The translations under genes were made by a program, and so were the position numbers. A stretch of DNA of 64,000 bases from assembly GCA_964601085.1 (NCBI GenBank), contig CAZRLN010000001.1:19166-83165 (forward strand), read 5' to 3'. Of this stretch, positions 34,501-61,653 are shown in pieces. Position 1 is the first letter of the stretch; the number at the start of each line of letters is the position of its first letter. The notes beneath the pieces are model-generated. The model was not told the DNA's origin. It did not search any database and was given only the letters and a program-made list of their open reading frames with translations. Source of the stretch: an uncultured Veillonellaceae bacterium. GTDB lineage: Bacteria; Bacillota; Negativicutes; UBA1444.

Positions 34501-34567
34501 GCCTCTCCAGCCGACCTGTTCTTGAGCTTTTTCACAGGGATAAAACACAATGAAAAGAGGCAGGAAC

Positions 34568-40861: not shown

Positions 40862-41152
40862 ATGTCGAAAAAAGGTAATCGTTACAACGCGGATTTTAAG
40901 AAGAAAGTCATTGCCCACAGTCGTCAGCCTGGCAATACTATTGCCGGAACCGCCAAGCAGTTTGACATCAGCGATCAGACTCTGCGCAACTGGCTTAACC
41001 AACGCGAGGATCAGAAACATCTGGACCGACTGCGATTGATGCAATTGGAAAAGGAATTGGCGGAAGCAAAACGACGATTGGCGGACATGGAATTGACCAA
41101 TGAAATTTTGATCAAGGCCACCGCAATTTTTGCCGCTAATAAGCAAGCCTGA
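40862..41152 (+). mobile_element. IS3-family transposase OrfA (HTH + leucine-zipper) lacking an OrfB partner; IS remnant
   Basis: MSKKGNRYNADFKKKVIAHSRQ...QTLRNWLNQ HTH_Tnp_1 domain followed by a coiled-coil, ending ...IFAANKQA*. RBS GGAGGAG. No OrfB-like ORF or frameshift partner follows; a polysaccharide export gene starts 54 nt later. Confidence 0.65.
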
Positions 41153-41205
41153 TGTTATTGTCTGAATCAACCGAACACTTAGTGGACAGAATGGAGGGGA
41201 AGCCG

Positions 41206-41940
41206 ATGAAGAAGTGGTTTTTGCTACTGCTGATTTTGTTGATTATGCCGCACGCCGGCAGTTTGGCAGCCGAACTAAATATCCCTTATATTTTGCACCC
41301 TGGCGATGTGCTGTCGATTAATGTCGCCGGCTATCCCGAATTGAGCTTCCCGCAAACAGAAGGCCGTCAGGGCATTACAATCGGCCTGGATGGGAAAATA
41401 GCCTATCCGTTTTTAGGCGAGGTTTCCACGCAGGGATTGACTGCGGACCAATTGGCAACCTCCTTGGCGGAACGGCTCAAAGGAGTGTATGTAAACGCCG
41501 CTGTCAGCGTAAATATCATGCGGTATGGCAAAGAAAGGATTTATGTTTTGGGGGAAGTGAATCGACCCGGGTCCTACGAACTGGACAAAGTTCGGACCCT
41601 ATTGGACGCGATAGGCGCAGCCAGCGGCTGGCAAACCGATGCGGCGAAAACCAAGGTTTTTATTATTCGCCGTGATCAGAACGGCAAACCACCGATCAAG
41701 GTTAATTTGATGAGTTTGTTGGAAAATGGCGATACCAGCAAAAATCATCGGCTTCGCGAAGGCGATGTCGTATTTTTGGTTGGCTCAAACAAATTGAATT
41801 TGGCGACGGACCTTCTTCCCTTAGTTAATGCGGCGTATCAATTGGCGAAATTCAATCATCTGAATCCCAATAATAACCAAGCGTCGCAGACTTCTCAGAA
41901 CCCCAATAATCCTAATAATCCTGATCCTGGGTGTCACTGA
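41206..41940 (+). CDS. Wza-like polysaccharide export protein (OPX; Poly_export + SLBB domain), paralog 1
   Basis: Signal peptide MKKWFLLLLILLIMPHAGSLAAE, PGD(V/M)LSI Poly_export motif, and an SLBB domain. The C-terminus is low-complexity NPNNPNNPDPGCH. Confidence 0.8.
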   Translation: MKKWFLLLLILLIMPHAGSLAAELNIPYILHPGDVLSINVAGYPELSFPQTEGRQGITIGLDGKIAYPFLGEVSTQGLTADQLATSLAERLKGVYVNAAVSVNIMRYGKERIYVLGEVNRPGSYELDKVRTLLDAIGAASGWQTDAAKTKVFIIRRDQNGKPPIKVNLMSLLENGDTSKNHRLREGDVVFLVGSNKLNLATDLLPLVNAAYQLAKFNHLNPNNNQASQTSQNPNNPNNPDPGCH

Positions 41941-42023: not shown

Positions 42024-42725
42024 ATGAGAAAATGGTTGTTTCTGGTGATGATTCTGGTGATCCTGCCGCATACAGGCGTGCTGGCGGCTGAAACGAATCC
42101 GGCGCCCACGCCGGACGTTAACAATTCTAATGGCGCCTATATCCTTCATCCGGGCGACATGCTGTCGATCAATGTGTTTGGGTATCCGGAATTGAGTTTT
42201 CCCAATCAGGGCCATATGGAAGGACTGACGATTCGCCCGGACGGAAAACTGACCTATCCCTTTCTGGGGGAAATCGCGGCAAAAGGAATGACGGTAAAAG
42301 ATTTCGCCAAGCTTCTTTCGGAACAGTTGGGCGAGATCTACGTGAACCCGGTTCTCAGCGTGAACATTATGCGTTTTGGTACGGATCGGATCTATGTCTT
42401 GGGCGAAGTCAACCAACCGGGAGCGTATGAGCTGGATAAGAGCCGAAATCTTCTGGACGCGATTGGCGCGGCGCGCGGCTGGACCAAAGATGCGGCGAAA
42501 ACCAAGGTTTTCATTATCCGTAAAGATCAAAACGGCAAGCCGCCACTAAAGATCAATCTCATGTCTTTGCTCAAGGAAGGCGATACCAGCAAAAACTATC
42601 CCCTTCAACAGGGCGACGTTGTATATCTGACGGAAAATCATCGGATTGATTTTGCCAGAGATATTGTGCCGCTCATCAATGCCGCCTACATGATTACCTG
42701 GATTTCCGACAACAACAAACGGTGA
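42024..42725 (+). CDS. Wza-like polysaccharide export protein (OPX), paralog 2
   Basis: About 65% identical to paralog 1 over the core, with signal peptide MRKWLFLVMILVILPHTGVLAAE. Confidence 0.8.
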   Translation: MRKWLFLVMILVILPHTGVLAAETNPAPTPDVNNSNGAYILHPGDMLSINVFGYPELSFPNQGHMEGLTIRPDGKLTYPFLGEIAAKGMTVKDFAKLLSEQLGEIYVNPVLSVNIMRFGTDRIYVLGEVNQPGAYELDKSRNLLDAIGAARGWTKDAAKTKVFIIRKDQNGKPPLKINLMSLLKEGDTSKNYPLQQGDVVYLTENHRIDFARDIVPLINAAYMITWISDNNKR

Positions 42726-42770
42726 CCAGTGCGGGAGAGTGAAAAAATTCAACATTGGGGAGGCACAATT

Positions 42771-44144
42771 ATGTTCGAGGAAAAATTGGAGATGCGTACC
42801 ATTGCCACAATTATCGGTCGACGGCGCAAAATCATTGGCGGCGTTTTGGGGGCAATGATCATTGCTGCGCTGATCTTCAGCTTTTTGCAACCAACCCAGT
42901 ATGAAGGAACGGTAAGCCTTCGGGTCCAATACCCGCTGGGGCTGAACGACAGGCTTTCGGCGCTGCCGTCAGACCAAATGATCACGCAGCAGATCATGAC
43001 CTATGCCGAAATTGCCAAAAGTCGGGCCGTTGTTCAACCGATCATTGAATATCTGTACGCCGATGCCGAGGAAAAGCCGCTCTATGAAGATATGGCCAAA
43101 CGGATCGATGCCAAACCGGTACGCGGGACCGACATGCTGGTATTGAGTATCTTGGCCGGAACACCGGCGGAAGCGCAAAAAGCGGCGGATTATCTATTGA
43201 TGACTTTCAATGCGAAACTTACGGACATTGTCAGACTCCAGGGGAAAGAGTCGCGGGTATTTATTGGCGGCCGACTGGAAGAAGCCAAGCTGGAATTGGA
43301 TAAAACGGAACAAGCGTTGGTCGACTTCAAGTCGAAAAACCAGACGGTGTCCATTAGCGACCAAACAAGAACCTTTGTGGAACGCCAGGCAAATTTGCGA
43401 AGACTGGCGGTGGACAATCAGTTGGCGTTGGAGAAGGCTTGGGCTCAAGTGAGATCGCCGGCGTTAATTTCCGATACGCCCACGATCACAAATCTGAAAA
43501 GTCGTCTTGCCGACCAGGAAGCCGAGCTTGCCGCATTGTTGAAAAACCATACGGATAAGCATCCCAAGGTGAAAACCTTGCAAGCGGCCATGGGCGAAAA
43601 CAAGGCGAAACTGAATGAAGAAATGAAACGTGTGGCCCAAGGCGAACTGGCATTGGGACAAACTCAGCGGGCCACGATCGCCAGACTTAGCAGCCAGGAA
43701 GAACAGGAGATGGCAGCGCTGCCGGCCAAAGAACAGGGTCTCGCCCGGCTGATGCTCAATTATACGGTGGCGCAGGAACTCTATGTCATGCTGGCCAAGC
43801 GGTATGAAGATGCCCGGATCAGTGAAGTGATGCAACCGACCAATGTTCAGGTCGTCGATGTCGCCGCAATGCCGGAAAAAACTGCTCGACCTCGCTGGTT
43901 GCTGAATTTGGCGATCGCCGGCCTGATTGGTCTGTTTTCCGGTGTTACCGCCGCGTTTTTCGTCGATTATTTCCGCAAGACGATCGATACGGCGGAGGAT
44001 GTCAAGAATTATCTTGGACTCCGGGTGATCGGCAGTATTCCCAGCTATGGCATGCAAAAGGAACCGGAAAAAGCTTGGAGCAACTTTACGCACAGGGTAC
44101 CGCAAGTGATCAAATCCGCTGAAGCGAAAAGTCAGGAGGGATGA
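42771..44144 (+). CDS. polysaccharide co-polymerase (Wzz/GumC-like chain-length determinant, PCP)
   Basis: N- and C-terminal TM helices flank a long coiled-coil periplasmic domain. There is no fused kinase domain. Confidence 0.8.
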   Translation: MFEEKLEMRTIATIIGRRRKIIGGVLGAMIIAALIFSFLQPTQYEGTVSLRVQYPLGLNDRLSALPSDQMITQQIMTYAEIAKSRAVVQPIIEYLYADAEEKPLYEDMAKRIDAKPVRGTDMLVLSILAGTPAEAQKAADYLLMTFNAKLTDIVRLQGKESRVFIGGRLEEAKLELDKTEQALVDFKSKNQTVSISDQTRTFVERQANLRRLAVDNQLALEKAWAQVRSPALISDTPTITNLKSRLADQEAELAALLKNHTDKHPKVKTLQAAMGENKAKLNEEMKRVAQGELALGQTQRATIARLSSQEEQEMAALPAKEQGLARLMLNYTVAQELYVMLAKRYEDARISEVMQPTNVQVVDVAAMPEKTARPRWLLNLAIAGLIGLFSGVTAAFFVDYFRKTIDTAEDVKNYLGLRVIGSIPSYGMQKEPEKAWSNFTHRVPQVIKSAEAKSQEG

Positions 44145-44146
44145 TC

Positions 44147-44821
44147 GTGGGAAAACAAACTCGATATATCATCCGGGATCGGGAACAGTCGGCGGTTGCC
44201 GAATCTTTCCGGGTGCTGAGTTCGACACTGCAGGAGACGCAGGCGGAAACCGGCGCTAAAACTATCTTGTTTTCGACCGTTACGACCGGTGAAGGCGATT
44301 CGATGGCAGCTGTCAACACTGCTGCATCCTTGGCATATGCCGGCAAAAAAGTAATTTTGGTGGATTGTGATATGCGACGCCCGGTATTGCACGAAATCTT
44401 CCACGTCGATGTTTTTGGCTTGACCAACGTTATCATCCAGGACAGGGAAGTGGCGGAAATGCTGCAAGACACGGATATCGCCGGACTTAAAGTCTTGTCC
44501 AGCGGATCGGTTCCGGTGGGGCCCGTGGAATTGCTTTCCAATCCCAAACTGCGGGAGGTTCTGGAAACATTGAAGACGATGGCCGATTATGTATGTATTG
44601 TTTGTGCCCCGCTGATCATCCGTTCTTCCAACATACTCTCCGATGCCTGCATTGTGGCGTCCAAAGTCGATGGGGTAATTTTGGTCATCGACAGCCGGTC
44701 CGTGAAAACGCAGACTGCGAAGAAAGCGGTGGAGTTGTTGAACGGCGCCAGGGCAAAGGTGATCGGGACGGTGCTGAACGATGTGAAAGCGGCAGACGAG
44801 TTCATGTATTTTGCCTCTTAG
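44147..44821 (+). CDS. BY-kinase (CpsD/CapB-type) homolog with degenerate catalytic motifs (predicted pseudokinase)
   Basis: AESFRVLSSTLQ N-terminal motif and overall CpsD-like architecture. The Walker A position reads TTGEGDSM instead of GEGKST. The Walker B-equivalent reads DYVCIVCAP instead of DYVIIDTPP. There is no C-terminal Tyr cluster (ends ...EFMYFAS). GTG start is inferred from AGGAGG spacing; the alternative ATG is at 44141. Confidence 0.75.
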   Translation: MGKQTRYIIRDREQSAVAESFRVLSSTLQETQAETGAKTILFSTVTTGEGDSMAAVNTAASLAYAGKKVILVDCDMRRPVLHEIFHVDVFGLTNVIIQDREVAEMLQDTDIAGLKVLSSGSVPVGPVELLSNPKLREVLETLKTMADYVCIVCAPLIIRSSNILSDACIVASKVDGVILVIDSRSVKTQTAKKAVELLNGARAKVIGTVLNDVKAADEFMYFAS

Positions 44822-44839: not shown

Positions 44840-46753
44840 ATGAGAAAAGGCAGGCGAATTCAGGTGCGACAAAAAATAAACCGCTTATGCCTGATGGTTG
44901 CTGATGCAGCGGTTTTTGCCGTCAGCCCCTTCATAGCATTATATCTGCGAGTAGACGACATAGCCGGAAGCGTATATTTGGATAAAATCATCCATTATCT
45001 GCCGGTGCTTCTGGCGGTCCACTTTCTTGCCTTTTTTGCCCTCCAACTGTACCGTCGGGTATGGAAATACGCCGGTATCCATGAATTGCTGTCGATTGTC
45101 GGGGCGGCGACGCTGGCGCAATTGTCGTTGTACCTTCTGGCCCAGGCGGGCGGGATTGGTTTGCCGCGAAGCCTCTATATTCTCTGCGGGTTGTTGGAAG
45201 TTGCAATGATTGGCGGAATTCGGCTGTCGGTAAGAATTGCATCGAACAAATGCCTCGAATTTCTTGGCCGCCCCGAAAAAATTCTGATATTTGGCGCCGG
45301 TGATGTGGGATCTTGGATTGTAAAGGAAATCCGTGCCCATTATGGCGCCAACAAGAAAATTGTTGGATTCATCGATGATGACCCGAAGAAATTGGGTTGC
45401 ATACTGAATGGCGTAAAAGTGCTGGGCGGGCGTTATGAAATTGAAAAAATTGTCACGCAGCATGGAATCGATGAAATCATTGTCGCCATCCCATCCGCCC
45501 GCAGCATGCTAGTTCGGGAAATTGTTAAAATGTGCCGTAGTACGAAAAGTAAAGTCAAAATTGTCCCCGCACTTCATGAGGTCATTGACGGATTGGTTAC
45601 AATTCGCCAGTTGCGGGATGTCAATCTGGAAGATTTGTTGCACCGGGAACCGATCAAACTGGACATTGCCCTGATGCGAACGCAATTTCGGCAAAAACGA
45701 GTGCTGATCACCGGCGCCGGTGGCTCCATCGGATCGGAGATTTCCCGCCAGGTAGCCAAGATGTTACCGGCTAAGCTGTATTTGTTGGGCAAGAGTGAAA
45801 ACAATATTTTTGAAATTGAACGCGAATTGCAAAGGTTGTATCCACACCTGGAAATGGAGCCGATTATTGCGGATGTTCGTGATGAAAAGCGCATCCGCAG
45901 CATATTCGCCGAACGACGTCCGGAAATCATCTTTCACGCCGCCGCGCACAAACATGTTCCCCTGATGGAGAGCCAACCGGTAGAGGCGGTTCAGAATAAT
46001 ATTTTCGGGACGATGACTGTCGCCAGAGCCGCAATGGCCGTGGAAGCAGAATGTTTTGTCATGGTGTCCACGGACAAAGCCATTAATCCTTCCAGTGTCA
46101 TGGGGGTAACCAAGCGAGTGGCGGAGATGGTCATTTGTTCCATGAACGGGAAGAGCGCCACAAGATTCGCCGCGGTACGCTTCGGCAATGTGCTGGGCAG
46201 CAGGGGCAGCGTGGTTCAACTGTTTCGCAAACAAATCGCCCAAGGCGAGGCCATCACGATCACTCACCCCGACATGTGCCGCTACTTCATGACGATTCCG
46301 GAAGCTTCGCAACTGGTGCTCCAGGCCGGCGCCATGGCGAAGGGCGGCGAAGTGTTTGTCCTCGACATGGGGGAACCGATCAAGATTGTGGATTTGGCTT
46401 GCCACTTGATTGAGCTGACCGGTTTGGTTCCCCACAAGGACATAAAAATTGAATATACAGGCTTACGTCCCGGCGAAAAACTGTTTGAAGAGTTGTTGAC
46501 GGCGGAAGAGGGCAGCTCGGCAACAAAACATGAAAAAATATTTGTGACTAATTTGAAAAAAGTGGATGAAGAAAAGTTGTATGAAAGCCTGACGGTTTTG
46601 AGAAATATCGAGGATTCGGATAAAATCGTCAACCTTCTGGCAAAATTGGTTCCCACGTACCAAGGTTCCAGGGTACGGCGGCTGCGCCTGATCGAAGGCA
46701 AAGAAGCGCTGACGACGGTTGATGGGAAAATGGTTCCCGAGGAGGCGCTTTGA
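44840..46753 (+). CDS. membrane-anchored UDP-N-acetylglucosamine 4,6-dehydratase (CapD/PglF/WbpM family)
   Basis: 637 aa. Four N-terminal TM helices, then tandem Rossmann domains with GAGGSIGSE, and an SDR catalytic region. Confidence 0.85.
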   Translation: MRKGRRIQVRQKINRLCLMVADAAVFAVSPFIALYLRVDDIAGSVYLDKIIHYLPVLLAVHFLAFFALQLYRRVWKYAGIHELLSIVGAATLAQLSLYLLAQAGGIGLPRSLYILCGLLEVAMIGGIRLSVRIASNKCLEFLGRPEKILIFGAGDVGSWIVKEIRAHYGANKKIVGFIDDDPKKLGCILNGVKVLGGRYEIEKIVTQHGIDEIIVAIPSARSMLVREIVKMCRSTKSKVKIVPALHEVIDGLVTIRQLRDVNLEDLLHREPIKLDIALMRTQFRQKRVLITGAGGSIGSEISRQVAKMLPAKLYLLGKSENNIFEIERELQRLYPHLEMEPIIADVRDEKRIRSIFAERRPEIIFHAAAHKHVPLMESQPVEAVQNNIFGTMTVARAAMAVEAECFVMVSTDKAINPSSVMGVTKRVAEMVICSMNGKSATRFAAVRFGNVLGSRGSVVQLFRKQIAQGEAITITHPDMCRYFMTIPEASQLVLQAGAMAKGGEVFVLDMGEPIKIVDLACHLIELTGLVPHKDIKIEYTGLRPGEKLFEELLTAEEGSSATKHEKIFVTNLKKVDEEKLYESLTVLRNIEDSDKIVNLLAKLVPTYQGSRVRRLRLIEGKEALTTVDGKMVPEEAL

Positions 46754-48063
46754 ACAACGACAGGAGTGTTGCGGACATCAGGGGTCGGCTTATTTCCGGC
46801 ATCAAATGGACGGCGGTAGTAGCGGTTGTGGTGTCGGCAAGTCATTTGGCTTCTTCGGTAATCGCGGCAAGACTGTTGGGGTTGGAGGAGTTTGGCAAGT
46901 TTTCGATTATTCGGAGTACGGCGATTATGATGGCCAACATTGCGGCAATGGGAATCGGTGTAGCCGCGACAAAATATGTGGCCGAACTTCGCAACACGAC
47001 TCCGGAACGACTGGGTAGAATCTTGGGACTGTGCTCCTCCATCACCATCGTGACCAGCGGATTGTTCGCACTGGCGCTGTTGCTGCTGGCGGAGGAGATT
47101 GCCACCACCAGCTTCAATTCGGGACAATTGGCCGGACAGTTGCGGATTTCCTCCATCTATATCTTCTTTGTCACACTGAATGAATATCAGAATGGTGTGT
47201 TGGCGGGGTTTGAATCCTTCGCGAAGCTGGCCCGAATCAATGCCATCCAGGCGGTGGGCAGCCTGTTGCTGATATCCGTGCTCGCCTTTTTGTGGGGGTT
47301 GACGGGCGCCGCGTGGGCGCTGGGCCTGTCCGGAGTGCTGAACTGGTACCTGAATCGGTTGGAAATTCGAAAACAACTGGCGAAATATCAGATCGCCGCG
47401 ACATATCAGGGGATTTTTCAGGAGAAGGCCGTGCTGACAAATTTCGCGCTGCCGGTGGCTTTTTCCGGAATGATCGGGGCGGTGACAGTATGGGGTTGCA
47501 ATGCTTTTTTGGTCCGACAGCCGGAAGGAATGGCGCAAATGGCCATATTTACGGCAGCAGGGTCTTTCCGGTCGCTCGTTATGTTTGTACCTGGAATGGT
47601 GATCCGCGTTGCAACTCCCATTTTGTGCAACCTGGTCGGCGAAAAAAATTATTTGGCATCATCGCGAGTTTTTAAGATCAATGTCCTGATTTCGGCTCTT
47701 GCCTCCTCCTGTGTTGCAGGCGTAATTATTTGGATGGCTCCGGAACTGTTGGCGCTGTTTGGGAAAAAATTCGTCATCGGCTCAGAAGTTGCAATAGTAG
47801 TTGCGCTAGTGTCAGTCATTGAAGTAATGGCCAGTACGTTGTATCAGCCTTTACTGGCTCATGGAAGAATCTGGTGGCAAGTCCAAGTGATCGTTTGCTG
47901 GAGCATCACTTTATTATTCGTAACCTTCTTGACTGCCGGCGATTATGGCGCTCTTGGATTGGCTGGTTCATATATGGCGGCGCATTTGGTTTCACTGAGC
48001 CTGTATGTATTCATGGGGCATCAGATCCGAAAAATAGCAAAACCGGATTTGGTTAGGATTTGA
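46750..48063 (+). CDS. oligosaccharide flippase Wzx (MOP superfamily polysaccharide biosynthesis protein)
   Basis: 437 aa, about 12 TM segments, typical PST family. TTG start overlapping the upstream stop. Confidence 0.75.
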   Translation: MNNDRSVADIRGRLISGIKWTAVVAVVVSASHLASSVIAARLLGLEEFGKFSIIRSTAIMMANIAAMGIGVAATKYVAELRNTTPERLGRILGLCSSITIVTSGLFALALLLLAEEIATTSFNSGQLAGQLRISSIYIFFVTLNEYQNGVLAGFESFAKLARINAIQAVGSLLLISVLAFLWGLTGAAWALGLSGVLNWYLNRLEIRKQLAKYQIAATYQGIFQEKAVLTNFALPVAFSGMIGAVTVWGCNAFLVRQPEGMAQMAIFTAAGSFRSLVMFVPGMVIRVATPILCNLVGEKNYLASSRVFKINVLISALASSCVAGVIIWMAPELLALFGKKFVIGSEVAIVVALVSVIEVMASTLYQPLLAHGRIWWQVQVIVCWSITLLFVTFLTAGDYGALGLAGSYMAAHLVSLSLYVFMGHQIRKIAKPDLVRI

Positions 48064-48086
48064 CATGACAGGGGAGGCAATTTTAT

Positions 48087-49091
48087 ATGGAATCTGAAGG
48101 AGTGGGCATCCCCTTTTTCAGCATCGTGATACCAGCCTATAACCGGGAAAAAGAAATTGTCCGGGCGATCGATAGTTGTCTCAATCAATCTTTTCACGAG
48201 ATTGAAGTGGTAGTGGTGGATGATGCATCTACTGACCATACGGCGGAAGTTGTTGCGGCAATGGACGATCCGCGGGTGAGACTGATTCGTCATACTATCA
48301 ATCGCAATGTATGCCCAGCTCGGAATACCGGGAGCGATCACAGTCGAGGCGAATGGGTGGTTTTTCTGGACAGTGACGACATCCTGACGCCAGGCGCTCT
48401 CCAAATGATGTGGAAATACGCGCGGGTTTGTCCTGATGAAATTGCCCAGTTGGGTTTCCAATTTGACCGCGAAGATGGCAGGGTATCGCCGGAACCGATT
48501 CCCCAGGAGTGCCTGTTGGACTATACCGGGTTTATCAGACTTTGTGAAGACTTGGTTCTTACGGATTGGGTGCAATGTACCCGACGATTCACATTTGACT
48601 TCGTCAGGTTTCCTGAAAGTCGAGCATATGAAAGCCCTTATCTTCTAGACTTTACGCAAAAATATAAAATTCATCTGATTCCTGAAATTGCTGGATACAA
48701 ATTTTTGGATAGTCCTAACAGGATTACATTGAATGTTGGCAGCGATGTTGTCTTGAAAATTTCCCGGGTTGCTCCCGATCACTTAGCGGCAACTGATTAT
48801 ATTTTGAAGCGACATGGTAAAATGCTCAAAATCCATTCGCCAAGACGATATCGCCTTTTCCGAAAAATGCAGCTTTTGGCCTGTTTCCTTGCAGGCTGGC
48901 GCTGGCGGGGAAGCCACCTGGGAATGAGCTATCTGCTGTCCTACCCCGGAGATGTCAGCGGGTGGGCGATAACCATGGCTGGACTTGCGGGACCGCAGAC
49001 ACTGACCAAAATTCGGCTGATGAAGCAACAACTGGCCAATTTGGCGGCAAAATATAGTTTGCGCTCAAAGACAACTGGAGGGGGAGCATAA
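48087..49091 (+). CDS. glycosyltransferase family 2
   Basis: FSIVIPAYNREKEIVRAIDSCLNQ...VVVDDASTDHT and the DSDD motif. Markedly lower GC than the housekeeping genes. Confidence 0.85.
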   Translation: MESEGVGIPFFSIVIPAYNREKEIVRAIDSCLNQSFHEIEVVVVDDASTDHTAEVVAAMDDPRVRLIRHTINRNVCPARNTGSDHSRGEWVVFLDSDDILTPGALQMMWKYARVCPDEIAQLGFQFDREDGRVSPEPIPQECLLDYTGFIRLCEDLVLTDWVQCTRRFTFDFVRFPESRAYESPYLLDFTQKYKIHLIPEIAGYKFLDSPNRITLNVGSDVVLKISRVAPDHLAATDYILKRHGKMLKIHSPRRYRLFRKMQLLACFLAGWRWRGSHLGMSYLLSYPGDVSGWAITMAGLAGPQTLTKIRLMKQQLANLAAKYSLRSKTTGGGA

Positions 49092-49092
49092 C

Positions 49093-50361
49093 ATGAAAAC
49101 GATGGAAGCCACCTTTGGCGCCTATCCACAAGTGAACGCCCAAGAGGGATTCGGATTTCACAAACTCTTTATGACCGCCTTGGCCGCCGGCTTAATGGGA
49201 GTGCTTTCTTCGTCCGCATTGTTCCCGCCTTCGTCGCCGCCGTTTTTCCGATTGCCGGCGGCTGCGGCGATTGTGGCGCTGATGTTTTTGTTGTCGGGCT
49301 TGCGGATTGGTAAATTTTCGACGGGACGGCTGCTGGCATTGGCCTGTTGGACTGGTTTCGCCCTGACATCCGTGATTTCCGCACTGCTTCACCGGGATTC
49401 CCTGTTGCCGGAAGTGTGGCAAGCCATTGGCGTGCCGCTCATCTTGTTCACGCTGTTTCCCCGGAGCGTCAGCCGGTTTGGCGATAAAATCGTCCTGTTT
49501 GCCATCATTCTGGCCTTTGCGCCCTATATTATCGTTTCCATCATTAAGGTGCCATTCTTTACCCCATATAACGGAGTGTTTTTGAACGCCAACATGTTCG
49601 GAATGATTGTTTCAACGATGTCGGCGGCAATTCTCGCGCTGTTGCGGGGTTCTTTGGATCAACGGGAATTTTCGCTGGCGAATTTGCTATGGCAGGCAAT
49701 GCTGTTGGGGATATTGGCCGGATCGTTGGTGCTGATTTTTTTAAGCGGATCCCGAACGAGTCTGGTGACGTTCAGCATCATGTGTCTGATCTTTTTCGCC
49801 TCCCTGTTTGTGAATATGTCGCGCAACCGTTACATGATCGCGATGTCGATCGCCGGGATTTTCGGCATTCTCCTGTATATTCTGGGAAGCGTTGCCATGA
49901 ATGCTTCGGCGACCGGTTTCGTCGAATACTTGACCAACAAATTCCTCACCAAAATTGCCCAGGACGATACGACCGGCGGACGTTTATACATATGGAGACT
50001 GGTACTGACCCACGCGCAGCTGATGGGATTGGGCAGCAACATATTAGGCGAACAGCCGGCCCACAATACCTACATGATGATTTTGGCGACAAAAGGTCCG
50101 ATCGCCATGGCGTTTATGATGGCGCTTCATTTGACAACCCTGGCGATGGCTTGGCGGCGAGTCGCGGTTGCGATCAAATATGATGGCTATTCCATCGGGC
50201 CATTGCTGATTGTCGTGAACTATCTGGTGATGGGACTGACCGAGAACGTATTTGGATCGCTGGGAAACGGCATCAACATTTCCTTTCTTCTAGCGGCCGG
50301 AATCCTTATTAATCAAGGTCAATACCTGCGGCTGGGGCATCCTCGGCAAGGGATGCGCTAG
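49093..50361 (+). CDS. O-antigen ligase/polymerase family membrane protein (Wzy-like)
   Basis: 422 aa polytopic membrane protein with a Wzy_C-like periplasmic loop. Confidence 0.7.
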   Translation: MKTMEATFGAYPQVNAQEGFGFHKLFMTALAAGLMGVLSSSALFPPSSPPFFRLPAAAAIVALMFLLSGLRIGKFSTGRLLALACWTGFALTSVISALLHRDSLLPEVWQAIGVPLILFTLFPRSVSRFGDKIVLFAIILAFAPYIIVSIIKVPFFTPYNGVFLNANMFGMIVSTMSAAILALLRGSLDQREFSLANLLWQAMLLGILAGSLVLIFLSGSRTSLVTFSIMCLIFFASLFVNMSRNRYMIAMSIAGIFGILLYILGSVAMNASATGFVEYLTNKFLTKIAQDDTTGGRLYIWRLVLTHAQLMGLGSNILGEQPAHNTYMMILATKGPIAMAFMMALHLTTLAMAWRRVAVAIKYDGYSIGPLLIVVNYLVMGLTENVFGSLGNGINISFLLAAGILINQGQYLRLGHPRQGMR

Positions 50362-50363
50362 AA

Positions 50364-51584
50364 ATGAAAGCGATGTTTGTACACGAACACAAGTTTGTTC
50401 GCGACGAAACCGGTAATTACTATTCTTCCGGACAATTTCCCTATCGGATTTGGCAACGGTATCTGGAGAATTTTGACGAATTGGTGGTCGTAGGCCGATT
50501 AAGGCCATTGCGGTCCGGGGAAAACTATCAATCCATGGATTTGTCGAGCGGTCCGAACGTAAGCTTCATGGAAGCGCCTTCACTCAGCGATCCTTGTTCC
50601 ATGATTTTTCGACGGCAGGAAGCAGCGGACAGAATCCGGAAAGCAATGCAAACCTGTGACGCCGTTATTATCCGAACCAGCGCCATGGGGCAACTTGCGG
50701 CTGAAATCGCCATGCAACTAAAGAAACCATGGGCGGTGGAAGTCGTGGGGTGCGCGTTCGATTCGCTATGGAATTATGGCAACTGGCAGGGAAAGTTATA
50801 TGCGCCATTTGCGGCCACCATGAACCGAAGAATGATCGGCAAGGCCCCTTTCGCGATCTACGTGACGCAAAGATTTCTGCAAAACCGCTATCCCTGTCCC
50901 GGTTATTCCGTCGGCTGTTCGGATGTGCAACTGGAAAAACGGGATGAGAAGATATTGATCAATCGGCTCAAGAGAATAGAAGGTAATGGCCCGGTTTTCA
51001 AAATTGGCCTGATTGGATCCCTCGTACATTCCCACAAGGGAATCGATACTGCGCTGCGGGCTTTGAAAAGGAGCAGGGAAAAACTGCCGCCGTTTGAATT
51101 CAGGATTCTTGGCGCTGGCGATCCCAAACGCTGGCAAACACTGGCCGAAGAGTGCGGAGTCGGTTCACAAACTGCATTTTGCGGTACGTTGGCCAACGGC
51201 GCAGCCGTAAGTCATTGGTTGGATGAAATCGACCTGTATATTCAGCCCAGCCGGGTCGAAGGCTTGCCCAGGGCGCTGGTGGAAGCGATGAGCAGGGGTT
51301 GCCCGGCATTGGGGTCGAATGTTGGCGGAATTCCTGAACTTCTGGATTCGCAGTGCCTTCACAAACCGGATGACGTCAATGGCTTGGCCCGGCTGTTGCT
51401 CACTGCCATTGGCAATAGAGAATGGCGGGTTGAGCAAGCCCAAAAGAACTTTTTACACGCCGGGGAATATGATGGCGAGGTGCTGGGCGAAATTAGACGG
51501 AATTTTTGGCGGAAGTTCGTCAACTATTGCCAAAGGGTTTCGGGTCCGGATTCCAACAAAGTATACCGCGATTGCATCGTTTGA
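50364..51584 (+). CDS. glycosyltransferase family 4
   Basis: C-terminal GT-B motif EGLPRALVEAMSRGCPALGSNVGGIPEL (E-x7-E). Confidence 0.85.
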   Translation: MKAMFVHEHKFVRDETGNYYSSGQFPYRIWQRYLENFDELVVVGRLRPLRSGENYQSMDLSSGPNVSFMEAPSLSDPCSMIFRRQEAADRIRKAMQTCDAVIIRTSAMGQLAAEIAMQLKKPWAVEVVGCAFDSLWNYGNWQGKLYAPFAATMNRRMIGKAPFAIYVTQRFLQNRYPCPGYSVGCSDVQLEKRDEKILINRLKRIEGNGPVFKIGLIGSLVHSHKGIDTALRALKRSREKLPPFEFRILGAGDPKRWQTLAEECGVGSQTAFCGTLANGAAVSHWLDEIDLYIQPSRVEGLPRALVEAMSRGCPALGSNVGGIPELLDSQCLHKPDDVNGLARLLLTAIGNREWRVEQAQKNFLHAGEYDGEVLGEIRRNFWRKFVNYCQRVSGPDSNKVYRDCIV

Positions 51585-51624
51585 CCAGAATTTCGGAACG
51601 CAGGCGAGCTTGGAGGATGAAGCC

Positions 51625-52995
51625 GTGAACTTGCGGGAAAAATCGTCGTCAAAGGCCGGGCTGTACTTGATGATTACCGTTTTACTTGTTCTTGCGGGCT
51701 TTGTTTGGTGGAAAGAGAGCAATGCCTTTGGTGTGACGCATTCGAATCCGGCCGGAAAAAAAATGACGGCGTCCCGGAATCAGGTTGCGGGGGCCGGGGG
51801 AACGGAATCAGGTTCGGTCACGGATGTCATCAATGTGAAGTCGTTTGGCGCCCGCGGCGATGGGGAACACAACGATACGGCGGCGATCCAGGCCGCAATC
51901 GATGCCGCCGGAGGCAAAACAACAACCGTTTTCATCCCGCCGGGAGAATATAAAATTGATGCGGTTCAGTCACTGACGCTAAAAAGCGGCACTACCCTGC
52001 AAATGACCCCGGACACCATCCTGCGCGTGATTCCCAATTCTGCACCGCGTTACGCCTTGATCACAGTGAACGGCGTAGAGAATGTCCGGATTCTCGGCGG
52101 TATTCTGATCGGCGACCGCAAGCAACACTTCGGCATAACCGGCGAATGGGGCATGGGGATTCGCATTACCGGCGCGAAAAATATACTTGTTCAGGATACG
52201 ACCTGCAATGAATTTTGGGGTGACGGGTTTTATATCGGCGAAACGACGCCGGGCAAGCCAAGCGAAAATGTCCGCCTGGTGGGCATCAAGGCGGACCGGA
52301 ACCGCCGTCAGGGATTGTCGCTGATCAGCGGGAAAAACATTGAGATTATCAACGCCGGTTTTACAAATACCAATGGAACGGCTCCGGCGGCAGGAATAGA
52401 TATCGAACCCAACAACCCGCGTAATGTATTGGAAAATATTATCATCCGGGATTTAACCACGGCTGGAAATCAAGGCGCGGGAATTATCATCAGCTCGGGA
52501 GCTTTGGCCGGCACGACGAATCCTGTCGGCATCCGAATCCTGAATCACCGGGATGAAGGCAGCGATCGCGGTATGCAGATTTCCACCAAAGGCATCATTT
52601 CCGGTGAGATCCTTATCGATCATCCGGAATGGAATAACACCCGCCGGAATGCAATCGCCATCCAGGGGCATGATCATCGTTCTTTCCACATCCAGATCAA
52701 TGCCGCCGCGATAACCGACGTGAATCAGAGCCTCCCGGGGGCAGCAATCGACATATACAGCTTTAAAGGTAGCAGTCCCAATGAAAATGGCGGGATCGGC
52801 AATGTCAGCGTCAACAGCCCGGTGATCGCCGATACCAGGGTCAATCCCAAGACCATTGCAGCTTTCTATATTTGGGATATTCCCGGCCATCGGATTCGGC
52901 GGTTGTCAATCAGCAATCCGGTTTTAAAAGGAAATTTGACGATGCTTTCTCTCCAAAATAATATTCATGAGTATGTGAACTATACGCAAAAATAG
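51625..52995 (+). CDS. right-handed parallel beta-helix (pectate-lyase fold) protein with N-terminal signal-anchor
   Basis: GTG start after RBS GGAGGA. TM helix LYLMITVLLVLAGFVWW. The Pectate_lyase_3-like motif VKSFGARGDGEHNDTAAIQAAIDAAG is followed by repeated beta-helix coils. Confidence 0.7.
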   Translation: MNLREKSSSKAGLYLMITVLLVLAGFVWWKESNAFGVTHSNPAGKKMTASRNQVAGAGGTESGSVTDVINVKSFGARGDGEHNDTAAIQAAIDAAGGKTTTVFIPPGEYKIDAVQSLTLKSGTTLQMTPDTILRVIPNSAPRYALITVNGVENVRILGGILIGDRKQHFGITGEWGMGIRITGAKNILVQDTTCNEFWGDGFYIGETTPGKPSENVRLVGIKADRNRRQGLSLISGKNIEIINAGFTNTNGTAPAAGIDIEPNNPRNVLENIIIRDLTTAGNQGAGIIISSGALAGTTNPVGIRILNHRDEGSDRGMQISTKGIISGEILIDHPEWNNTRRNAIAIQGHDHRSFHIQINAAAITDVNQSLPGAAIDIYSFKGSSPNENGGIGNVSVNSPVIADTRVNPKTIAAFYIWDIPGHRIRRLSISNPVLKGNLTMLSLQNNIHEYVNYTQK

Positions 52996-53029
52996 TCGGA
53001 TGCCTGAAGGAAAACCGGAGGTGTTATTT

Positions 53030-54313
53030 GTGAACCGAAAGATTGGTGTTATTGGACTCGGGTACGTGGGATTGCCGATTGCCATCGCATTTGCCCGAAA
53101 ATTCGATGGCGTGGTCGGCTTTGACATTAATCCTGCAAAAATCAACTCCTTGCGCCAGGGGGAAGACAACACCGGCGAAGTGGAAATCGCCGATTTGCGG
53201 TCCACTTCCTTGAAATTCACCAATGAGGTTCGGGATCTGGAAGCAGTGGACTTTTTTGTAGTGGCGGTGCCGACGCCGATTGACGAAGCGAATTGCCCGG
53301 ATCTCAGCGCGCTTGAAAGAGCTTCGGAAGTGGTTGGCAGTGTCCTGCGCCCCGGATCGGTAGTGGTTTACGAGTCGACTGTATATCCCGGAGTTACGGA
53401 GGAAATATGCGGTCCCATATTGGCCCGGGTATCCGGACTCAAGCAAGGGGTTGATTTCAAACTCGGATATTCCCCGGAACGAATCAGCCCGGGAGACAAA
53501 AAACACCGGCTGGAAAACATTGTTAAGGTTGTGTCCGGGGAAGATGAACAAACTTTAGATGTTATCGCCCAGGCCTATAATGCGATTGTTGACGCCGGAA
53601 TTTATCGGGCTTCCAGTATCAAAGTGGCGGAAGCGGCGAAAGTCATCGAAAATACGCAGCGGGATCTTAATATTGCGTTGATGAACGAGTTGGCCATTAT
53701 TTTCGAAAAGATGCGGATTTGTACGCGCGATGTCCTGGCGGCAGCCAATACGAAGTGGAACTTTCTTCCCTTTTCCCCGGGGCTTGTCGGTGGACACTGC
53801 ATCGGCGTCGATCCTTATTATTTAACCTATAAGGCGGAAGAAATCGGCTACAGCCCCCAAGTCATCCTGGCCGGCAGACGAATTAACGACGGAATGGGCA
53901 AATATGTGGCCGAGCAGACCGTCAAAAAAATCGCCAAAGAACGGGTGGTGGTTTCGGATGCGAAAGTCGGGATTTTTGGCCTGACTTTCAAGGAGAATGT
54001 GCCGGATATCCGTAATAGTCGGGTCCCGGATATTGTGGATGAATTGCGAAGTTACGGAATTGAAGCGTTGGTGCATGACCCGGCGGCGGATAGAAAAGCC
54101 GCCATGTCCGAGTATGGAATCCTCCTTCGGGATTTGTCGGTGTTGCAACAATTGGATGCCATCATCATAGCGGTGGCCCATGAGGAATATGTAACCGCAG
54201 GCTTGCCGGCGTTTGTCGCTCGGCTAAAAAACCAACAGGGAGTTGTCATGGACGTGAAGTCCATATTCAATCCTGAAAAGTTGCCAATGGGGGTGAGGTA
54301 TTGGAGCCTGTAG
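53030..54313 (+). CDS. UDP-N-acetyl-D-glucosamine/mannosamine 6-dehydrogenase (TviB/WbpA/WecC family)
   Basis: [15 protein letters not shown] Rossmann N-terminus, catalytic Cys region GGHCIG. GTG start after RBS GGAGG. Confidence 0.85.
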
Positions 54314-55353
54314 CAAGCGCATACGAAGTATTGCAGAAACAATTGCGGCATTCGCCCCGAAAGTGGCTTGTGACCGGAGTAGCCGGATTTATTGGATCCA
54401 ATCTGTTGGAAAATCTGTTGTTGATGGACCAGATTGTTGTCGGCGTTGATAATTTTTCAACCGGCTTTCAGGAAAATATCGAAGATGTCCTGTCGAAGGT
54501 CGCTCCGGGACAGGCCGCCCGATTTTCCCTGATCACGGGGGACATTCGAGATGATTCTCTCTGCAGGCAAGCTTGTCAGGGTATCGATATTGTGCTGCAG
54601 GAGGCGGCCCTGGGGTCTGTATCAAGATCCGTCGCCGATCCGGCGACGACTAACCAGAATAATGTCGACGGCTTTTTGAATATGTTGATCGCCGCCCGGG
54701 ATGCAAAGGTAGCGAGATTTGTCTTCGCCTCCTCCAGTTCCGTATACGGGGACTGCACCGATCTTCCAAAAATTGAGGATCATATTGGAAAGCCACTTTC
54801 ACCCTACGCGGTCACAAAATATTTGAATGAGTTATATGCAGGCGTTTTTGGCCGACTTTATGATTTTTCCTGTATCGGGCTGCGGTATTTCAATGTTTTT
54901 GGCCGGCGCCAAAACCCCAATGGCGCTTATGCCGCAGTCATTCCAAAATGGTTTAATAGCTTAATCCGGCGGGAAAAAACTTTCATCAACGGAGACGGAG
55001 CAACCAGCCGTGATTTTTGCTTTATCGATAATGTGGTCCAGGCGAACCTGCTGGCCGGTTGCACCGACAATCCGGCAGCAATCGGCCAAGTTTACAACAT
55101 CGCCTGCGGTGAACGGACAACGCTCAACGAATTGCATTCCATGATCCGAAAGCTGCTGGAAAACGCTAACCCGGATTATCTTTTCACAGAACCGGAGTAT
55201 CGGGAGTTTCTGCCCGGCGATGTACGACATTCCCATGCCGATATTGAAAAGGCCGTTCAGTTGCTTGGTTATTGTCCGACGCATATGGTTCAGGAAGGTT
55301 TGGCAAAAACCGCCGCGTGGTATTTGCAACACGGAACGGGTTGCCCCAAATGA
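54301..55353 (+). CDS. NAD-dependent UDP-sugar 4-epimerase (TviC/WbpP-like)
   Basis: [19 protein letters not shown] Rossmann motif, YxxxK in [11 protein letters not shown]. The adjacent TviB-like gene suggests UDP-GlcNAcA to UDP-GalNAcA conversion. Confidence 0.85.
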
Positions 55354-55372
55354 ATTGATTGGGGGGTCTTCG

Positions 55373-56581
55373 ATGGCTAGAATTCTGGTGATTGGCGGAA
55401 ATGTCCATTCCCTGGTCCTGTTTCGCGGCGATATGATTCAACAAATGGTGGAGGACGGGAATGAGGTTTTTGCGATGGCGCCGGCGACGGATTTGGAAGG
55501 AGAAGCGGCAAACCTATTGACAAAACTTGTGGCGGAGAAGCTTCAAACGCTGGGTGTTCCTTATTTGCCGATTCCGCTGAATCGCACCGGTGTGAACCCT
55601 TTAAAAGATTTGCATACGATTTGTTGGCTTAGCCGAAAAATGAATGAAATAGAACCGGATGTCGTGTTGTCCTACACAATGAAACCGGTGATTTACGGTT
55701 CGATTGCCGCCCGTATGGCTGGCGTGCGAAACATTTTTTCGATGATTACCGGCCTGGGCTATGTGTTTACCGGTGACTCCCTTCGACAACGGGTGTTGGC
55801 GCGGATTGTCATTGTATTGTATAAACTGGCGTTGGGGTTCAATAAAAAGATCTATTTTATGAATCCGGATGATTATAACCTGTTTCGGCAGTTGAAAATT
55901 GTACCTGACGGGAAAAAGACGGTGATGATTAATGGTTCCGGAGTCAATGTGGAGCGTTATTCATTTAAGCCGCCGCAAACGGAGACGTTTATTTTCCTGA
56001 TCATTGCCCGATTGCTTTGGGATAAGGGGGTTGGCGAGTTTGTCAGTGCGGCCCGGTTGTTGAAGGAAAAATATCCGGAAGTTCGCTGGCAAATCGTCGG
56101 TCCGTTTGACAATAATCCCAGCGCCATCCATCGGGAGGATGTGGCGAAGTGGCAGGCGGAAGGCTTGATAGAGTATATGGGGGCAACGGAGGATGTCCGT
56201 CCCTATCTGGAAAAGGCGAGTGTTTATGTGTTGCCGTCTTATCGTGAAGGGACGCCGCGATCCGTATTGGAAGCCATGGCAATGGGGCGTCCGGTTATTA
56301 CGACAGATGCCCCGGGCTGCAGGGAGACCGTGATCGACGGGGTTAATGGTTTTTTGGTTCCGGTGCGTGACAAGGTCGCGTTAGCCGCGGCCATGGAAAA
56401 ATTTATCATTGATAAAGAGCTTATGGCGGAAATGGGCAGAAAGGGACGGGAGATTGCGGAATCCCGCTATGATGTTCATAAAGTCAATCTTTCCATATTG
56501 CGACCGATGGAGTTGGATCAATTTCACGACAAAAGAAATGTTGCCCAGTGGAGTCCGGTCTCCAAATCATCCAAGGCTTGA
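55373..56581 (+). CDS. glycosyltransferase family 4
   Basis: MARILVIGG N-terminus and the GT-B C-terminal EGTPRSVLEAMAMGRPVITTDAPG motif. Confidence 0.85.
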   Translation: MARILVIGGNVHSLVLFRGDMIQQMVEDGNEVFAMAPATDLEGEAANLLTKLVAEKLQTLGVPYLPIPLNRTGVNPLKDLHTICWLSRKMNEIEPDVVLSYTMKPVIYGSIAARMAGVRNIFSMITGLGYVFTGDSLRQRVLARIVIVLYKLALGFNKKIYFMNPDDYNLFRQLKIVPDGKKTVMINGSGVNVERYSFKPPQTETFIFLIIARLLWDKGVGEFVSAARLLKEKYPEVRWQIVGPFDNNPSAIHREDVAKWQAEGLIEYMGATEDVRPYLEKASVYVLPSYREGTPRSVLEAMAMGRPVITTDAPGCRETVIDGVNGFLVPVRDKVALAAAMEKFIIDKELMAEMGRKGREIAESRYDVHKVNLSILRPMELDQFHDKRNVAQWSPVSKSSKA

Positions 56582-56600
56582 TTGAGGCGGTGAGGTTCCT

Positions 56601-57203
56601 GTGAAACGGATGTTTGACCTGGTCGCTTCCGCGACACTGTTGATCTTTCTGTTACCCGTACTGGCCGTTATTGCCGTTTTGGTTCGGTGGCGGCTCGGTT
56701 CTCCTGTAATTTTCAGAGCGATTCGTCCCGGTCTGCATGGCAAGCCGTTTTGCATGTATAAGTTTCGGACCATGACGAATGCCCGTGATAAAGCAGGGCG
56801 TCTATTGCCGGATAAGGAAAGAATCAATCGATTGGGCGAGCTGTTGAGACGGTCGAGTTTGGATGAATTGCCTCAATTGGTAAATGTGATCAAAGGAGAA
56901 ATGAGTCTGGTTGGCCCCCGGCCACTGGCGATGGAATATCTGCCGCTTTACAATATGGAACAAGCTCGGCGGCATCACGTCAAACCCGGGATTACCGGCT
57001 GGGCCCAGGTCAATGGGCGAGCCACGATTTCCTGGACCGAAAAGTTCAAATTGGATGTTTGGTATGTAGATAATCATTCCTTTTCGATCGATATGTTGAT
57101 CTTGTTTCTGACGGTGAAGAATGTAGTTTTTCAACACGGCGTGTGCAACACTGGCGAAACAAAGTATGGCAATTTTTTGGGATCAAATTATAAGGATGGA
57201 TGA
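56601..57203 (+). CDS. undecaprenyl-phosphate sugar-phosphotransferase, small PglC/WbaP-C-terminal type (priming enzyme)
   Basis: Single N-terminal TM helix plus the Bac_transf domain with DELPQL and SLVGPRP motifs. 200 aa, typical of PglC-like enzymes that transfer N-acyl-amino-dideoxyhexose-1-P. Confidence 0.85.
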   Translation: MKRMFDLVASATLLIFLLPVLAVIAVLVRWRLGSPVIFRAIRPGLHGKPFCMYKFRTMTNARDKAGRLLPDKERINRLGELLRRSSLDELPQLVNVIKGEMSLVGPRPLAMEYLPLYNMEQARRHHVKPGITGWAQVNGRATISWTEKFKLDVWYVDNHSFSIDMLILFLTVKNVVFQHGVCNTGETKYGNFLGSNYKDG

Positions 57204-57206
57204 GAA

Positions 57207-59403: not shown

Positions 59404-59427
59404 ATTGAACCAACAAGGATGGGAATT

Positions 59428-60498: not shown

Positions 60499-60535
60499 TA
60501 CAGGAATGTGGACCGTCGATGGAGGCTGTGCAAAT

Positions 60536-61600: not shown

Positions 61601-61653
61601 AGCATGACGACTGAGATACAGGTGACGAAGAATTAAAAAAGGAGTGAGCCTTC

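Follow-up and report, generated by a model that had tools for sequence, protein, structure and literature searches.

Can a polysaccharide co-polymerase (PCP) do its work with a tyrosine-kinase partner that has lost the residues of catalysis? The question is raised by the open reading frame (ORF) at positions 44147 to 44821 of a 64,000-nucleotide stretch of DNA from an uncultured Veillonellaceae bacterium (assembly GCA_964601085.1, contig CAZRLN010000001.1, positions 19,166 to 83,165), here called the window. The ORF follows a PCP gene in a cluster for exopolysaccharide (EPS) synthesis and encodes a homolog of the bacterial tyrosine kinases (BY-kinases). A sequence-only reading of the window had judged this homolog to be catalytically dead and had proposed a structural or nucleotide-independent regulatory mechanism. 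What that reading drew from the sequence has been borne out by the same losses in 50 of 50 clade members, by selection like that on the PCP gene, and by the absence of a linked phosphatase gene at six loci. We consider that the protein is probably a stand-alone BY pseudokinase, one that serves as a scaffold for its PCP-2b partner and involves no phospho-cycling.

Active-site motifs, predicted fold and conservation

The ORF is a full-length homolog of the CapB/CpsD-type BY-kinases, as had been claimed from its alignment to CpsD/CapB. It scores 150.5 bits against TIGR01007, "polysaccharide biosynthesis tyrosine autokinase" (cutoff, 108.05), and 36.6 against PF13614 (AAA_31; threshold, 27). Its top relatives in the Protein Data Bank (PDB), as ranked by phmmer, are the Staphylococcus aureus CapA-CapB chimeras (E ~1e-24, 217 residues aligned); VpsO, BceF, Etk, and Wzc rank next. 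Translation from the GTG at 44147 gives 224 amino acids (aa), and translation from the alternative ATG at 44141, which shares bases with the PCP stop codon, gives 226 aa. The GTG lies 8 nucleotides downstream of a Shine-Dalgarno sequence, AGGAGG (44133 to 44138), a better fit than that of the ATG, and the 224-aa homologs, which begin MGKQ, match the GTG start. Residue numbers given here are those of the 226-aa form.

Next to the motifs of active enzymes, three features are missing. By phmmer, GAGKST of CapB stands opposite GEGDSM, and VIIDTPP of CapB stands opposite CIVCAP. In an alignment to a hidden Markov model (HMM) with 98 canonical BY-kinases, the column of D53 (codon GAT) holds Lys and the column of V154 (codon GTT) holds Asp in all 98 kinases. 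The C-terminal tail, DVKAADEFMYFAS, contains a single Tyr, Y223, whose column is that of the first Tyr of the YYYYYY cluster in the active kinases of Negativicutes. The Walker A change from Lys to Asp, the loss of the Walker B Asp, and the lack of a Tyr cluster had all been named in the sequence-only reading, and each is confirmed, as is the registration of the motifs, for which a profile alignment had been advised; misregistration was ruled out because phmmer and hmmalign concur. A Tyr cluster hidden behind a premature stop was ruled out as well, since what lies in frame 3' of the stop is the beginning of the CapD-like gene; an apparent tblastn read-through past the stop is a chance match of basic residues.

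Other kinase features are retained. The Walker A' motif has the hhhhDxDxR pattern, with D75, D77, and R79 conserved in 50, 47, and 50, respectively, of 51 sequences (the 50 clade members described below and a motif-intact metagenomic protein, P0037). The EX2RX2R ring-contact motif reads ESFRVLS, so that only the last Arg is lost, and DREQS is invariant across the clade and its active sister P0037. On the alignment, the intact Walker A' and the loss of only one EX2RX2R residue mean that the kinase is less than fully eroded. Judged by its motifs, the protein lacks three defining features of an active BY-kinase and should not be filed as a tyrosine autokinase.

An AlphaFold2 (AF2) model made with the clade alignment as input has a mean predicted local distance difference test score (pLDDT) of 86 and a predicted template modeling score of 0.86. 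The beta1-loop-alpha1 architecture of the P-loop is modeled with confidence (P-loop geometry at pLDDT > 90). At a clade-specific insertion the chain makes a small additional beta excursion, where pLDDT is lower, and the final 12 residues are modeled as disordered. In a Foldseek search of the PDB, the template modeling scores were 0.80 to CapA2B2, 0.83 to CapA1B1, and 0.81 to the Wzc kinase-domain octamer, and the matches to VpsO, BceF, Etk, the CapA-B chimeras, and Wzc all had a probability of 1.00. With scores of 0.80 to 0.83 to 4jmp, 4jlv, 3la6, and 6u1q, the P-loop NTPase fold of BY-kinases is present in the model, which indicates that the complete BY-kinase fold is retained.

The conservation of the degenerate state was assessed in a census of 50 clade members (43 to 82% identity) and 98 canonical relatives aligned to one HMM, with a Tyr cluster defined as at least three Tyr in 10 residues. 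The Walker A Lys was found in none of the 50 clade members and in all 98 canonical relatives, and the Walker B Asp was likewise found in 0 of 50 (Val, Asn, Thr, Ile, Ser, or His instead) versus 98 of 98. A Tyr cluster was present in 0 of 50 versus 74 of 98, and a 5-residue insert was present in 50 of 50 versus 0 of 98. A phi-phi-Tyr relic remains in about 38 of the 50 clade tails, with Phe, Cys, or no residue in the remaining 12 or so. Among the 50 members, the Lys position is taken by Asp (22), Gly (10), Ala (7), Asn (4), Thr (3), Ser (2), or Ile (1), and the Ser/Thr position of Walker A by Ala, Ser, Thr, or Val. In the most divergent representatives the P-loop is wholly eroded (THQSDEYAM, CCKKSSASQ, GSVNPDNDL), and some of these also lack Walker A' (VDCNFYSA in P0078 and VDANLRSP in P0075). 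The hypervariable Lys position and the eroded P-loops have the appearance expected of a loop that no longer binds phosphate. All taxon-labeled members among the 50 are Negativicutes.

The degenerate form recurred in each kind of search. Among 5.8 billion proteins, a word-indexed search picked out 71 relatives. The nearest 43 (45 to 82% identity) come mostly from unlabeled metagenome assemblies, the two named by NCBI being from Veillonellaceae and Negativicutes metagenome-assembled genomes (MAGs), and 42 of the 43 are degenerate, the exception being P0037. When 1.84 billion cluster representatives were searched exhaustively by profile, 81,435 BY-kinase-like proteins were obtained at E < 1e-3, and only six of the 50%-identity representatives listed (P0072 to P0075, P0077, and P0078) belong to the clade. 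In a scan of 185,579 species-representative genomes, the degenerate form was seen in four genomes among the best 80 of 582 confirmed loci: three are Negativicutes/Veillonellaceae MAGs (82, 70, and 65% identity), and in the fourth, a Pelosinus MAG, the copy is more divergent (43% identity).

Selection was estimated by the Nei-Gojobori method against the syntenic locus L001 (Negativicutes UBA1444). For the pseudokinase gene, pN was 0.092 and pS 0.66, giving a dN/dS of ~0.06, an approximate ratio because synonymous sites are near saturation. The corresponding values were 0.04 for the PCP gene, 0.05 for the OPX gene (for outer membrane polysaccharide export), 0.06 for the CapD-like gene, and 0.10 to 0.13 for the Wzx, Wzy, and glycosyltransferase genes; the ranking among the EPS genes is clear despite the near-saturated synonymous sites. 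The pseudokinase is maintained in its dead state by purifying selection about as strong as that on the PCP.

These data also bear on sequencing or assembly error, or a recently inactivated and decaying gene, as a source of the altered motifs. The sole point in favor is that a single base change at V154 would restore the Walker B Asp. Against it, D53 is two substitutions from any Lys codon, the full-length ORF yields a confidently folded model, at least 24 independent ENA/Logan metagenome contigs carry the identical 226-aa protein, and all of the changes are common to the 50 homologs. Together with the low dN/dS, the census and the identical contig copies refute error and pseudogene formation to the point that we give them next to no credence. 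That three coordinated losses argue against sequencing error had been held from this one gene; the survey of homologs, also advised then, found Lys, Asp, and the Tyr cluster lost in 50 of 50.

Descent, partner and proposed mode of action

The next-best matches to the pseudokinase (37 to 41% identity) are active kinases with GEGKST, D(A/T/S)PP, and YYYYYY tails, from Sporomusa ovata (L006), Pelosinus baikalensis (L007 and L011), Dendrosporobacter (L010), Propionispora (L017), and related MAGs. Closer still is P0037 (50% identity), which carries the clade signatures YIIKDREQS and SDACILASKVDG together with intact motifs (GEGKT, EAFRVLR, and VDSPP), no insert, and a GGYGSYGS tail. P0037 and the clade grouped together in 200 of 200 neighbor-joining bootstraps, with the motif columns in or out, and the clade without P0037 was monophyletic in 172 of 200, or in 78 of 200 with the motif columns masked. 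A single origin of the Negativicutes pseudokinase clade therefore seems likely from the sequences, and the simplest reading would be one inactivation in a Negativicutes BY-kinase lineage. The clade probably arose independently of the proteobacterial and myxobacterial pseudokinases, of which EcpK of Myxococcus xanthus and HfsB are known here from their descriptions: its nearest relatives are active Firmicute-type kinases, and EcpK is described as differing from it, with a reduced fold and no Walker A'.

Degenerate BY-kinase domains were also met outside the clade. P0076, P0081, P0088, P0101, and P0107 are PCPs of 780 to 925 aa from high-G+C, probably actinobacterial, sources and carry tandem BY-kinase domains; in P0081 the first domain is degenerate (GEETT and ILKVAP) and the second is intact (EGKSS, IDTPP, and SYYYD). 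By their motifs, these five are predicted pseudokinase-kinase fusions in one chain. A protein of an Atribacterota MAG (L023, 901 to 1635) reads QEGMDIF and ILYAPP, with no Lys and no Asp, and keeps a Tyr-rich tail, and a fused PCP-kinase of an Armatimonadota MAG (L068, 2213 to 4828) has GQGGTT replacing GK(S/T). These two are apparently further degenerate BY-kinases of separate origin.

The partner of the pseudokinase is a PCP without a kinase domain of its own, encoded in a Wzx/Wzy-dependent cluster that also holds OPX and phosphoglycosyltransferase genes. That it is intact and Wzz-like, as had been noted, is upheld by its Wzz and GNVR domains, its two transmembrane segments, and its 56-residue cytoplasmic extension, which begins RKTIDTAEDVKNYLGLRVIGSIP. 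Gene callers start it at 42771, and the longest ORF starts at 42729. Within the extension, the segment TIDTAEDVKNYLGLRVIGSIP (TIDTAEDVKxYLGLRVIGSIP) is conserved between the partners of active and dead kinases, and the tail is presumed, by analogy, to be the counterpart of the activator tail of CapA and of Wzc alpha1-beta1 and to provide the docking site for the pseudokinase. The OPX-PCP-kinase order is identical in the pseudokinase loci (the window, L001, L002, L004, L081, and L082) and in the active loci L005 to L017. The sets of glycosyltransferase genes 3' of this triad vary between loci and are quite different in L081 and L082, which suggests that the triad acts as a module. From the overlapping genes, the conserved synteny, and the conserved PCP tail, we infer a direct interaction between the pseudokinase and the PCP tail.

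The protein descends from a CapB/CpsD-type kinase of diderm Firmicutes. It has kept the fold and its place in the OPX-PCP-kinase module; gone are the Lys and the Ser/Thr of the P-loop, the Asp of Walker B, and the Tyr cluster that active enzymes autophosphorylate. In the mechanism that we propose, it would dock on the 56-residue tail of the PCP-2b protein, as CapB does on CapA and EcpK on EpsV, and, once docked, would support or organize the PCP oligomer for Wzy-dependent polymerization and hand-over to OPX. Such a scaffold would need no ATP hydrolysis, autophosphorylation, or phosphatase-driven cycle; assembly and disassembly would then be set by binding and unbinding or by expression level.

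A phosphatase for such a cycle was sought with an HMM built from CpsB/CapC-type phosphatases of the polymerase and histidinol phosphatase (PHP) family; three of its matches were confirmed as PF19567 (E ~1e-52). A CpsB/CapC gene lies within 10 kb in six of the eight nearest active loci with full flanks versus none of the six pseudokinase loci named above (one-sided Fisher P = 0.009, a value that ignores kinship between the 14 loci). The order is cpsB-OPX-PCP-kinase, with the phosphatase gene just 5' of OPX, in L005, L007, L009, L010, and L012; in L017 it lies ~3 kb further upstream. Six phosphatases searched by tblastn against the window gave only noise (E > 0.1) and no remnant, and the large ORFs of the window (≥150 aa), treated as its likely genes, contain no CX5R motif or Pfam match of a low-molecular-weight protein tyrosine phosphatase. 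No second BY-kinase-like gene was found in the window by profile search and tblastn, and neither a phosphatase nor a second kinase was found within ±10 kb of the five other pseudokinase loci. The search for an intact second BY-kinase and a phosphatase, another of the checks advised, thus came back empty within the 64-kb window.

Two candidates were set aside. The ORF at 36969 to 38153 has a faint PHP_C match, but it belongs to TIGR00375 (243 bits), a family that includes endonuclease Q, and is unmatched by the CpsB HMM. A ParA/CbiA-like P-loop protein of 232 aa (35653 to 36351, plus strand), the only other match of the window to the BY-kinase profile, is weak (E = 6e-5) and unrelated to EPS; its gene adjoins one for butyrate kinase (34550 to 35641).

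Several observations weigh against a purely scaffolding role. Walker A' (DxDxR), a G-E/D-G loop, and N213 are conserved in most members, so residual binding of Mg2+ or nucleotide is possible. About three-quarters of the tails keep a single Tyr, a possible site of trans-phosphorylation. An active BY-kinase and a phosphatase may be encoded outside the 64-kb window, and in Pelosinus baikalensis two active loci are separated by 24 kb. The phosphatase contrast comes from 14 loci that are phylogenetically non-independent, and the noncatalytic role of the clade rests on sequence and model.

Some of these observations would fit a dead kinase that cooperates with an active BY-kinase encoded elsewhere, either with Tyr223 phosphorylated in trans or within mixed rings, so that phospho-control is outsourced. 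This explanation is modeled on CapB1/CapB2 and PtkB/PtkA and has already been proposed for CapB1 (PMC3795738). It gains from the Tyr relic, which stands at the first position of the cluster in about 38 of 50 tails, from the possibility of several active loci per Negativicutes genome (L007 and L011 are on one contig), and from the actinobacterial chains, in which a degenerate and an intact domain are in fact paired. It loses from the roughly 12 of 50 members in which that Tyr is Phe, Cys, or missing and from the lack of a phosphatase or second kinase in the intervals searched at the six loci, and M. xanthus genetics argue that EcpK is independent of active BY-kinases and phosphatase (PMC12004946). 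We regard such cooperation as unlikely here.

The retained Walker A' bears on a different alternative, in which the remodeled site binds a ligand (a nucleotide bound noncanonically, Mg2+ alone, or another small molecule) that switches ring assembly, making the protein a noncatalytic sensor. D75, D77, and R79 are nearly invariant, the acidic D53 joins their cluster in 22 of 50 members, and the P-loop geometry is modeled with confidence. The open-to-closed transition of Wzc for ring formation is driven by Mg2+ and not by nucleotide (reviewed in PMC9800525), and a PilZ-domain ORF stands at the end of the EPS cluster. Contrary to this explanation, the Lys and Ser/Thr positions are unconstrained in the clade with no compensating basic residue, D53 itself is not conserved, and divergent members lack the glycine loop and in some cases Walker A'. 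We think it quite improbable. It would be just as doubtful in the specific form of an independently evolved pseudokinase whose site has been turned into a switch that senses a ligand or cation and controls the assembly of PCP rings, and there is equally little reason to favor a switch site made up of the Walker A' acidic pair, the 5-residue insert, and the relic one-Tyr tail. Were it true, the switch would be a new, non-phosphorylation mode of control for Wzy-dependent export, and P0037 and the phosphatase-bearing paralogous loci would form a natural before/after series.

A structural, nucleotide-independent role that replaces phospho-cycling, the same model as that for EcpK/EpsV and HfsB/HfsA, would be a reasonable account by analogy.

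The surrounding EPS cluster

The features of the pseudokinase, its partner, and the cluster are collected in Table 1. Upstream of the EPS cluster are housekeeping genes, including hisS, aspS, alaS, efp, dxs, recN, and xerD. Within the cluster, genes for a helix-turn-helix (HTH) protein, two short OPX proteins, and the PCP precede the pseudokinase gene. It is followed by genes for a CapD-like dehydratase, Wzx, a family 2 glycosyltransferase (GT2), Wzy, a family 4 glycosyltransferase (GT4), a beta-helix protein, a UDP-sugar dehydrogenase, an epimerase, a second GT4, a phosphoglycosyltransferase, two GNATs, an unknown ORF, two FemAB-like proteins, and a DegT aminotransferase.

Table 1. Positions in the window of the pseudokinase, its motifs, and associated features
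Feature	Position	Strand	Basis
Stand-alone BY pseudokinase (predicted)	44147..44821	+	TIGR01007, CapB match, AF2 model, Foldseek, Shine-Dalgarno spacing
N-terminal signature DREQS, then ESFRVLS	44177..44221	+	Alignment
Degenerate Walker A loop GEGDSM, D53 (44297-44299) in place of catalytic Lys	44288..44305	+	CapB alignment, HMM alignment
Intact Walker A' VILVDCDMRRP (D75, D77, R79, P81)	44351..44383	+	Alignment of 51 sequences
Degenerate Walker B DYVCIVCAP, V154 (44600-44602) in place of Asp	44585..44611	+	CapB alignment, HMM alignment
Clade-specific 5-residue insertion IRSSN after Walker B strand	44618..44632	+	HMM alignment, AF2 model
Short disordered 13-residue tail, single Tyr Y223 (44807-44809), no Tyr cluster	44780..44818	+	Alignment, AF2
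Partner PCP-2b, Wzz + GNVR; transmembrane segments 42831-42887 and 43896-43964	42771..44144	+	Domain matches
Cytoplasmic C-terminal extension of the PCP, 56 residues	43974..44141	+	Alignment with PCPs of active loci
Short OPX (Wza-like, Poly_export + SLBB), member of OPX-PCP-kinase triad	42024..42725	+	Pfam, synteny
Second, duplicated short OPX (Poly_export + SLBB)	41152..41940	+	Pfam; also in L001, L084
Rest of Wzx/Wzy-dependent EPS cluster	44840..62901	+	Pfam

The tandem OPX proteins (262 and 233 aa) are short, lack a C-terminal outer membrane helix domain, and resemble the periplasmic "D1D2" OPX proteins that need a beta-barrel protein as a separate partner; none was identified in the 64-kb window. 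The first copy, which has an Asn/Pro/Gln-rich tail, looks like a recent duplication because it is absent from L002, L081, and L082, which have a single copy. Directly 5' of it, at 40799 to 41152 (plus strand), is the gene for the HTH protein, a 117-aa IS3-orfA-like/HTH_Tnp_1 protein with no orfB or transposase body. The same gene occupies the same place in L001 (85% identity), L002 (66%), and L084, and it fills the slot held by the cpsB phosphatase gene in related active-kinase loci. The protein is probably a domesticated regulator of the EPS operon.

At the other end of the cluster, a stand-alone PilZ ORF of 95 aa (62829 to 63116, minus strand; PF07238, 32.4 bits versus a cutoff of 22.5) converges on the last EPS gene and overlaps it by a short stretch. 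The profile's N-terminal RxxxR portion has no match in the ORF, which leaves binding of cyclic di-GMP uncertain; the ORF could be an alternative posttranslational input to the EPS system. A 368-aa ORF (58297 to 59403, plus strand) between a GNAT gene and the FemAB-like genes has no Pfam or NCBIfam match. The two FemAB-like/Acetyltransf_6 proteins are encoded side by side (59419 to 61600, plus strand), and with the two GNATs their presence suggests that the sugar repeat unit may be decorated with amino acids or acyl groups.

Comparison with known systems

Among solved structures and by sequence family, the closest systems are CapB/CapA of S. aureus and CpsD/CpsC of streptococci, which are active and have a CapC/CpsB phosphatase. 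The window system shares with them a separate PCP with a cytoplasmic activator-type tail, followed by a kinase-like protein of ~225 aa. It differs in lacking the Walker A Lys, the Walker B Asp, the Tyr cluster, and a linked PHP phosphatase, and, because the host is diderm, it includes OPX proteins, which those systems do not. Inactive Firmicute paralogs, CapB1 and PtkB, have been likened to pseudokinases (PMC3795738).

The active BY-kinases of Negativicutes share the OPX-PCP-kinase synteny with the pseudokinase. They and P0037 have GEGK(S/T), D(A/S/T)PP, no insert, and YYYYYY or YGxYG tails, and most of the active loci have a cpsB-like gene directly 5' of OPX, which the pseudokinase loci lack. 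One OPX-PCP-kinase slot thus holds a clean evolutionary series of active kinases with CpsB, P0037, and some 50 pseudokinases, in which the absence of the phosphatase refers to six pseudokinase loci. NCBI names the relatives "CpsD/CapB family tyrosine-protein kinase," a misannotation as active kinases; since the pseudokinases also pass the TIGR01007 cutoff, motif checks are needed before phospho-regulation of EPS is inferred from such annotations.

Noncatalytic relatives are on record in other phyla. PMC12004946 cites Cuthbertson et al. (2009) as listing degenerate PCP-2 proteins without catalytic residues and cites HfsB/HfsA of Caulobacter crescentus as discussed as noncatalytic; GumC of Xanthomonas has been called a "pseudo-BY-kinase" (PMC9800525). 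By the descriptions in these papers, all resemble the window protein in being noncatalytic, BY-kinase-like, and needed for or modulating Wzy-dependent synthesis. They belong to Proteobacteria and allies, several are fused to the PCP, and none is from Negativicutes or Bacillota; for Negativicutes, our literature searches turned up no account of a BY pseudokinase.

The nearest parallel is EcpK/EpsV of M. xanthus, a BY pseudokinase with a kinase-less PCP-2 (Blöcher et al., J Bacteriol 2025; PMC12004946), and the phosphorylation-independent scaffold model has experimental support for both this pair and HfsB/HfsA (PMC12004946). The concept of a BY pseudokinase is already published for EcpK/EpsV, HfsB/HfsA, and GumC, and the scaffold idea is not new. 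The existence of such proteins will not surprise a specialist; the value of the present clade lies in the natural series and the annotation caveat, and it would extend the phosphorylation-independent PCP-2/BY-pseudokinase class to diderm Firmicutes. Like EcpK, the window protein has a stand-alone BY-kinase fold without catalytic residues or a Tyr-rich tail, and, like EpsV, its PCP-2 partner has no kinase domain and belongs to a Wzx/Wzy pathway with a short periplasmic OPX protein. EcpK has been proposed to bind the cytoplasmic C terminus of its PCP as a scaffold, the role that may also apply here. In EcpK none of the three Walker motifs survives, and several secondary-structure elements are gone, leaving a five-stranded sheet; the protein ends in a basic alpha-helix, and its gene is not adjacent to epsV. 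The window protein, from a different phylum, keeps the whole fold, an intact Walker A', and a TIGR01007 score above the cutoff, has a new 5-residue insert, ends in a disordered tail with a relic Tyr, and is encoded by a gene that overlaps the PCP gene. With its whole fold and Walker A' kept, it may be better suited than EcpK for separating scaffolding from catalytic features.

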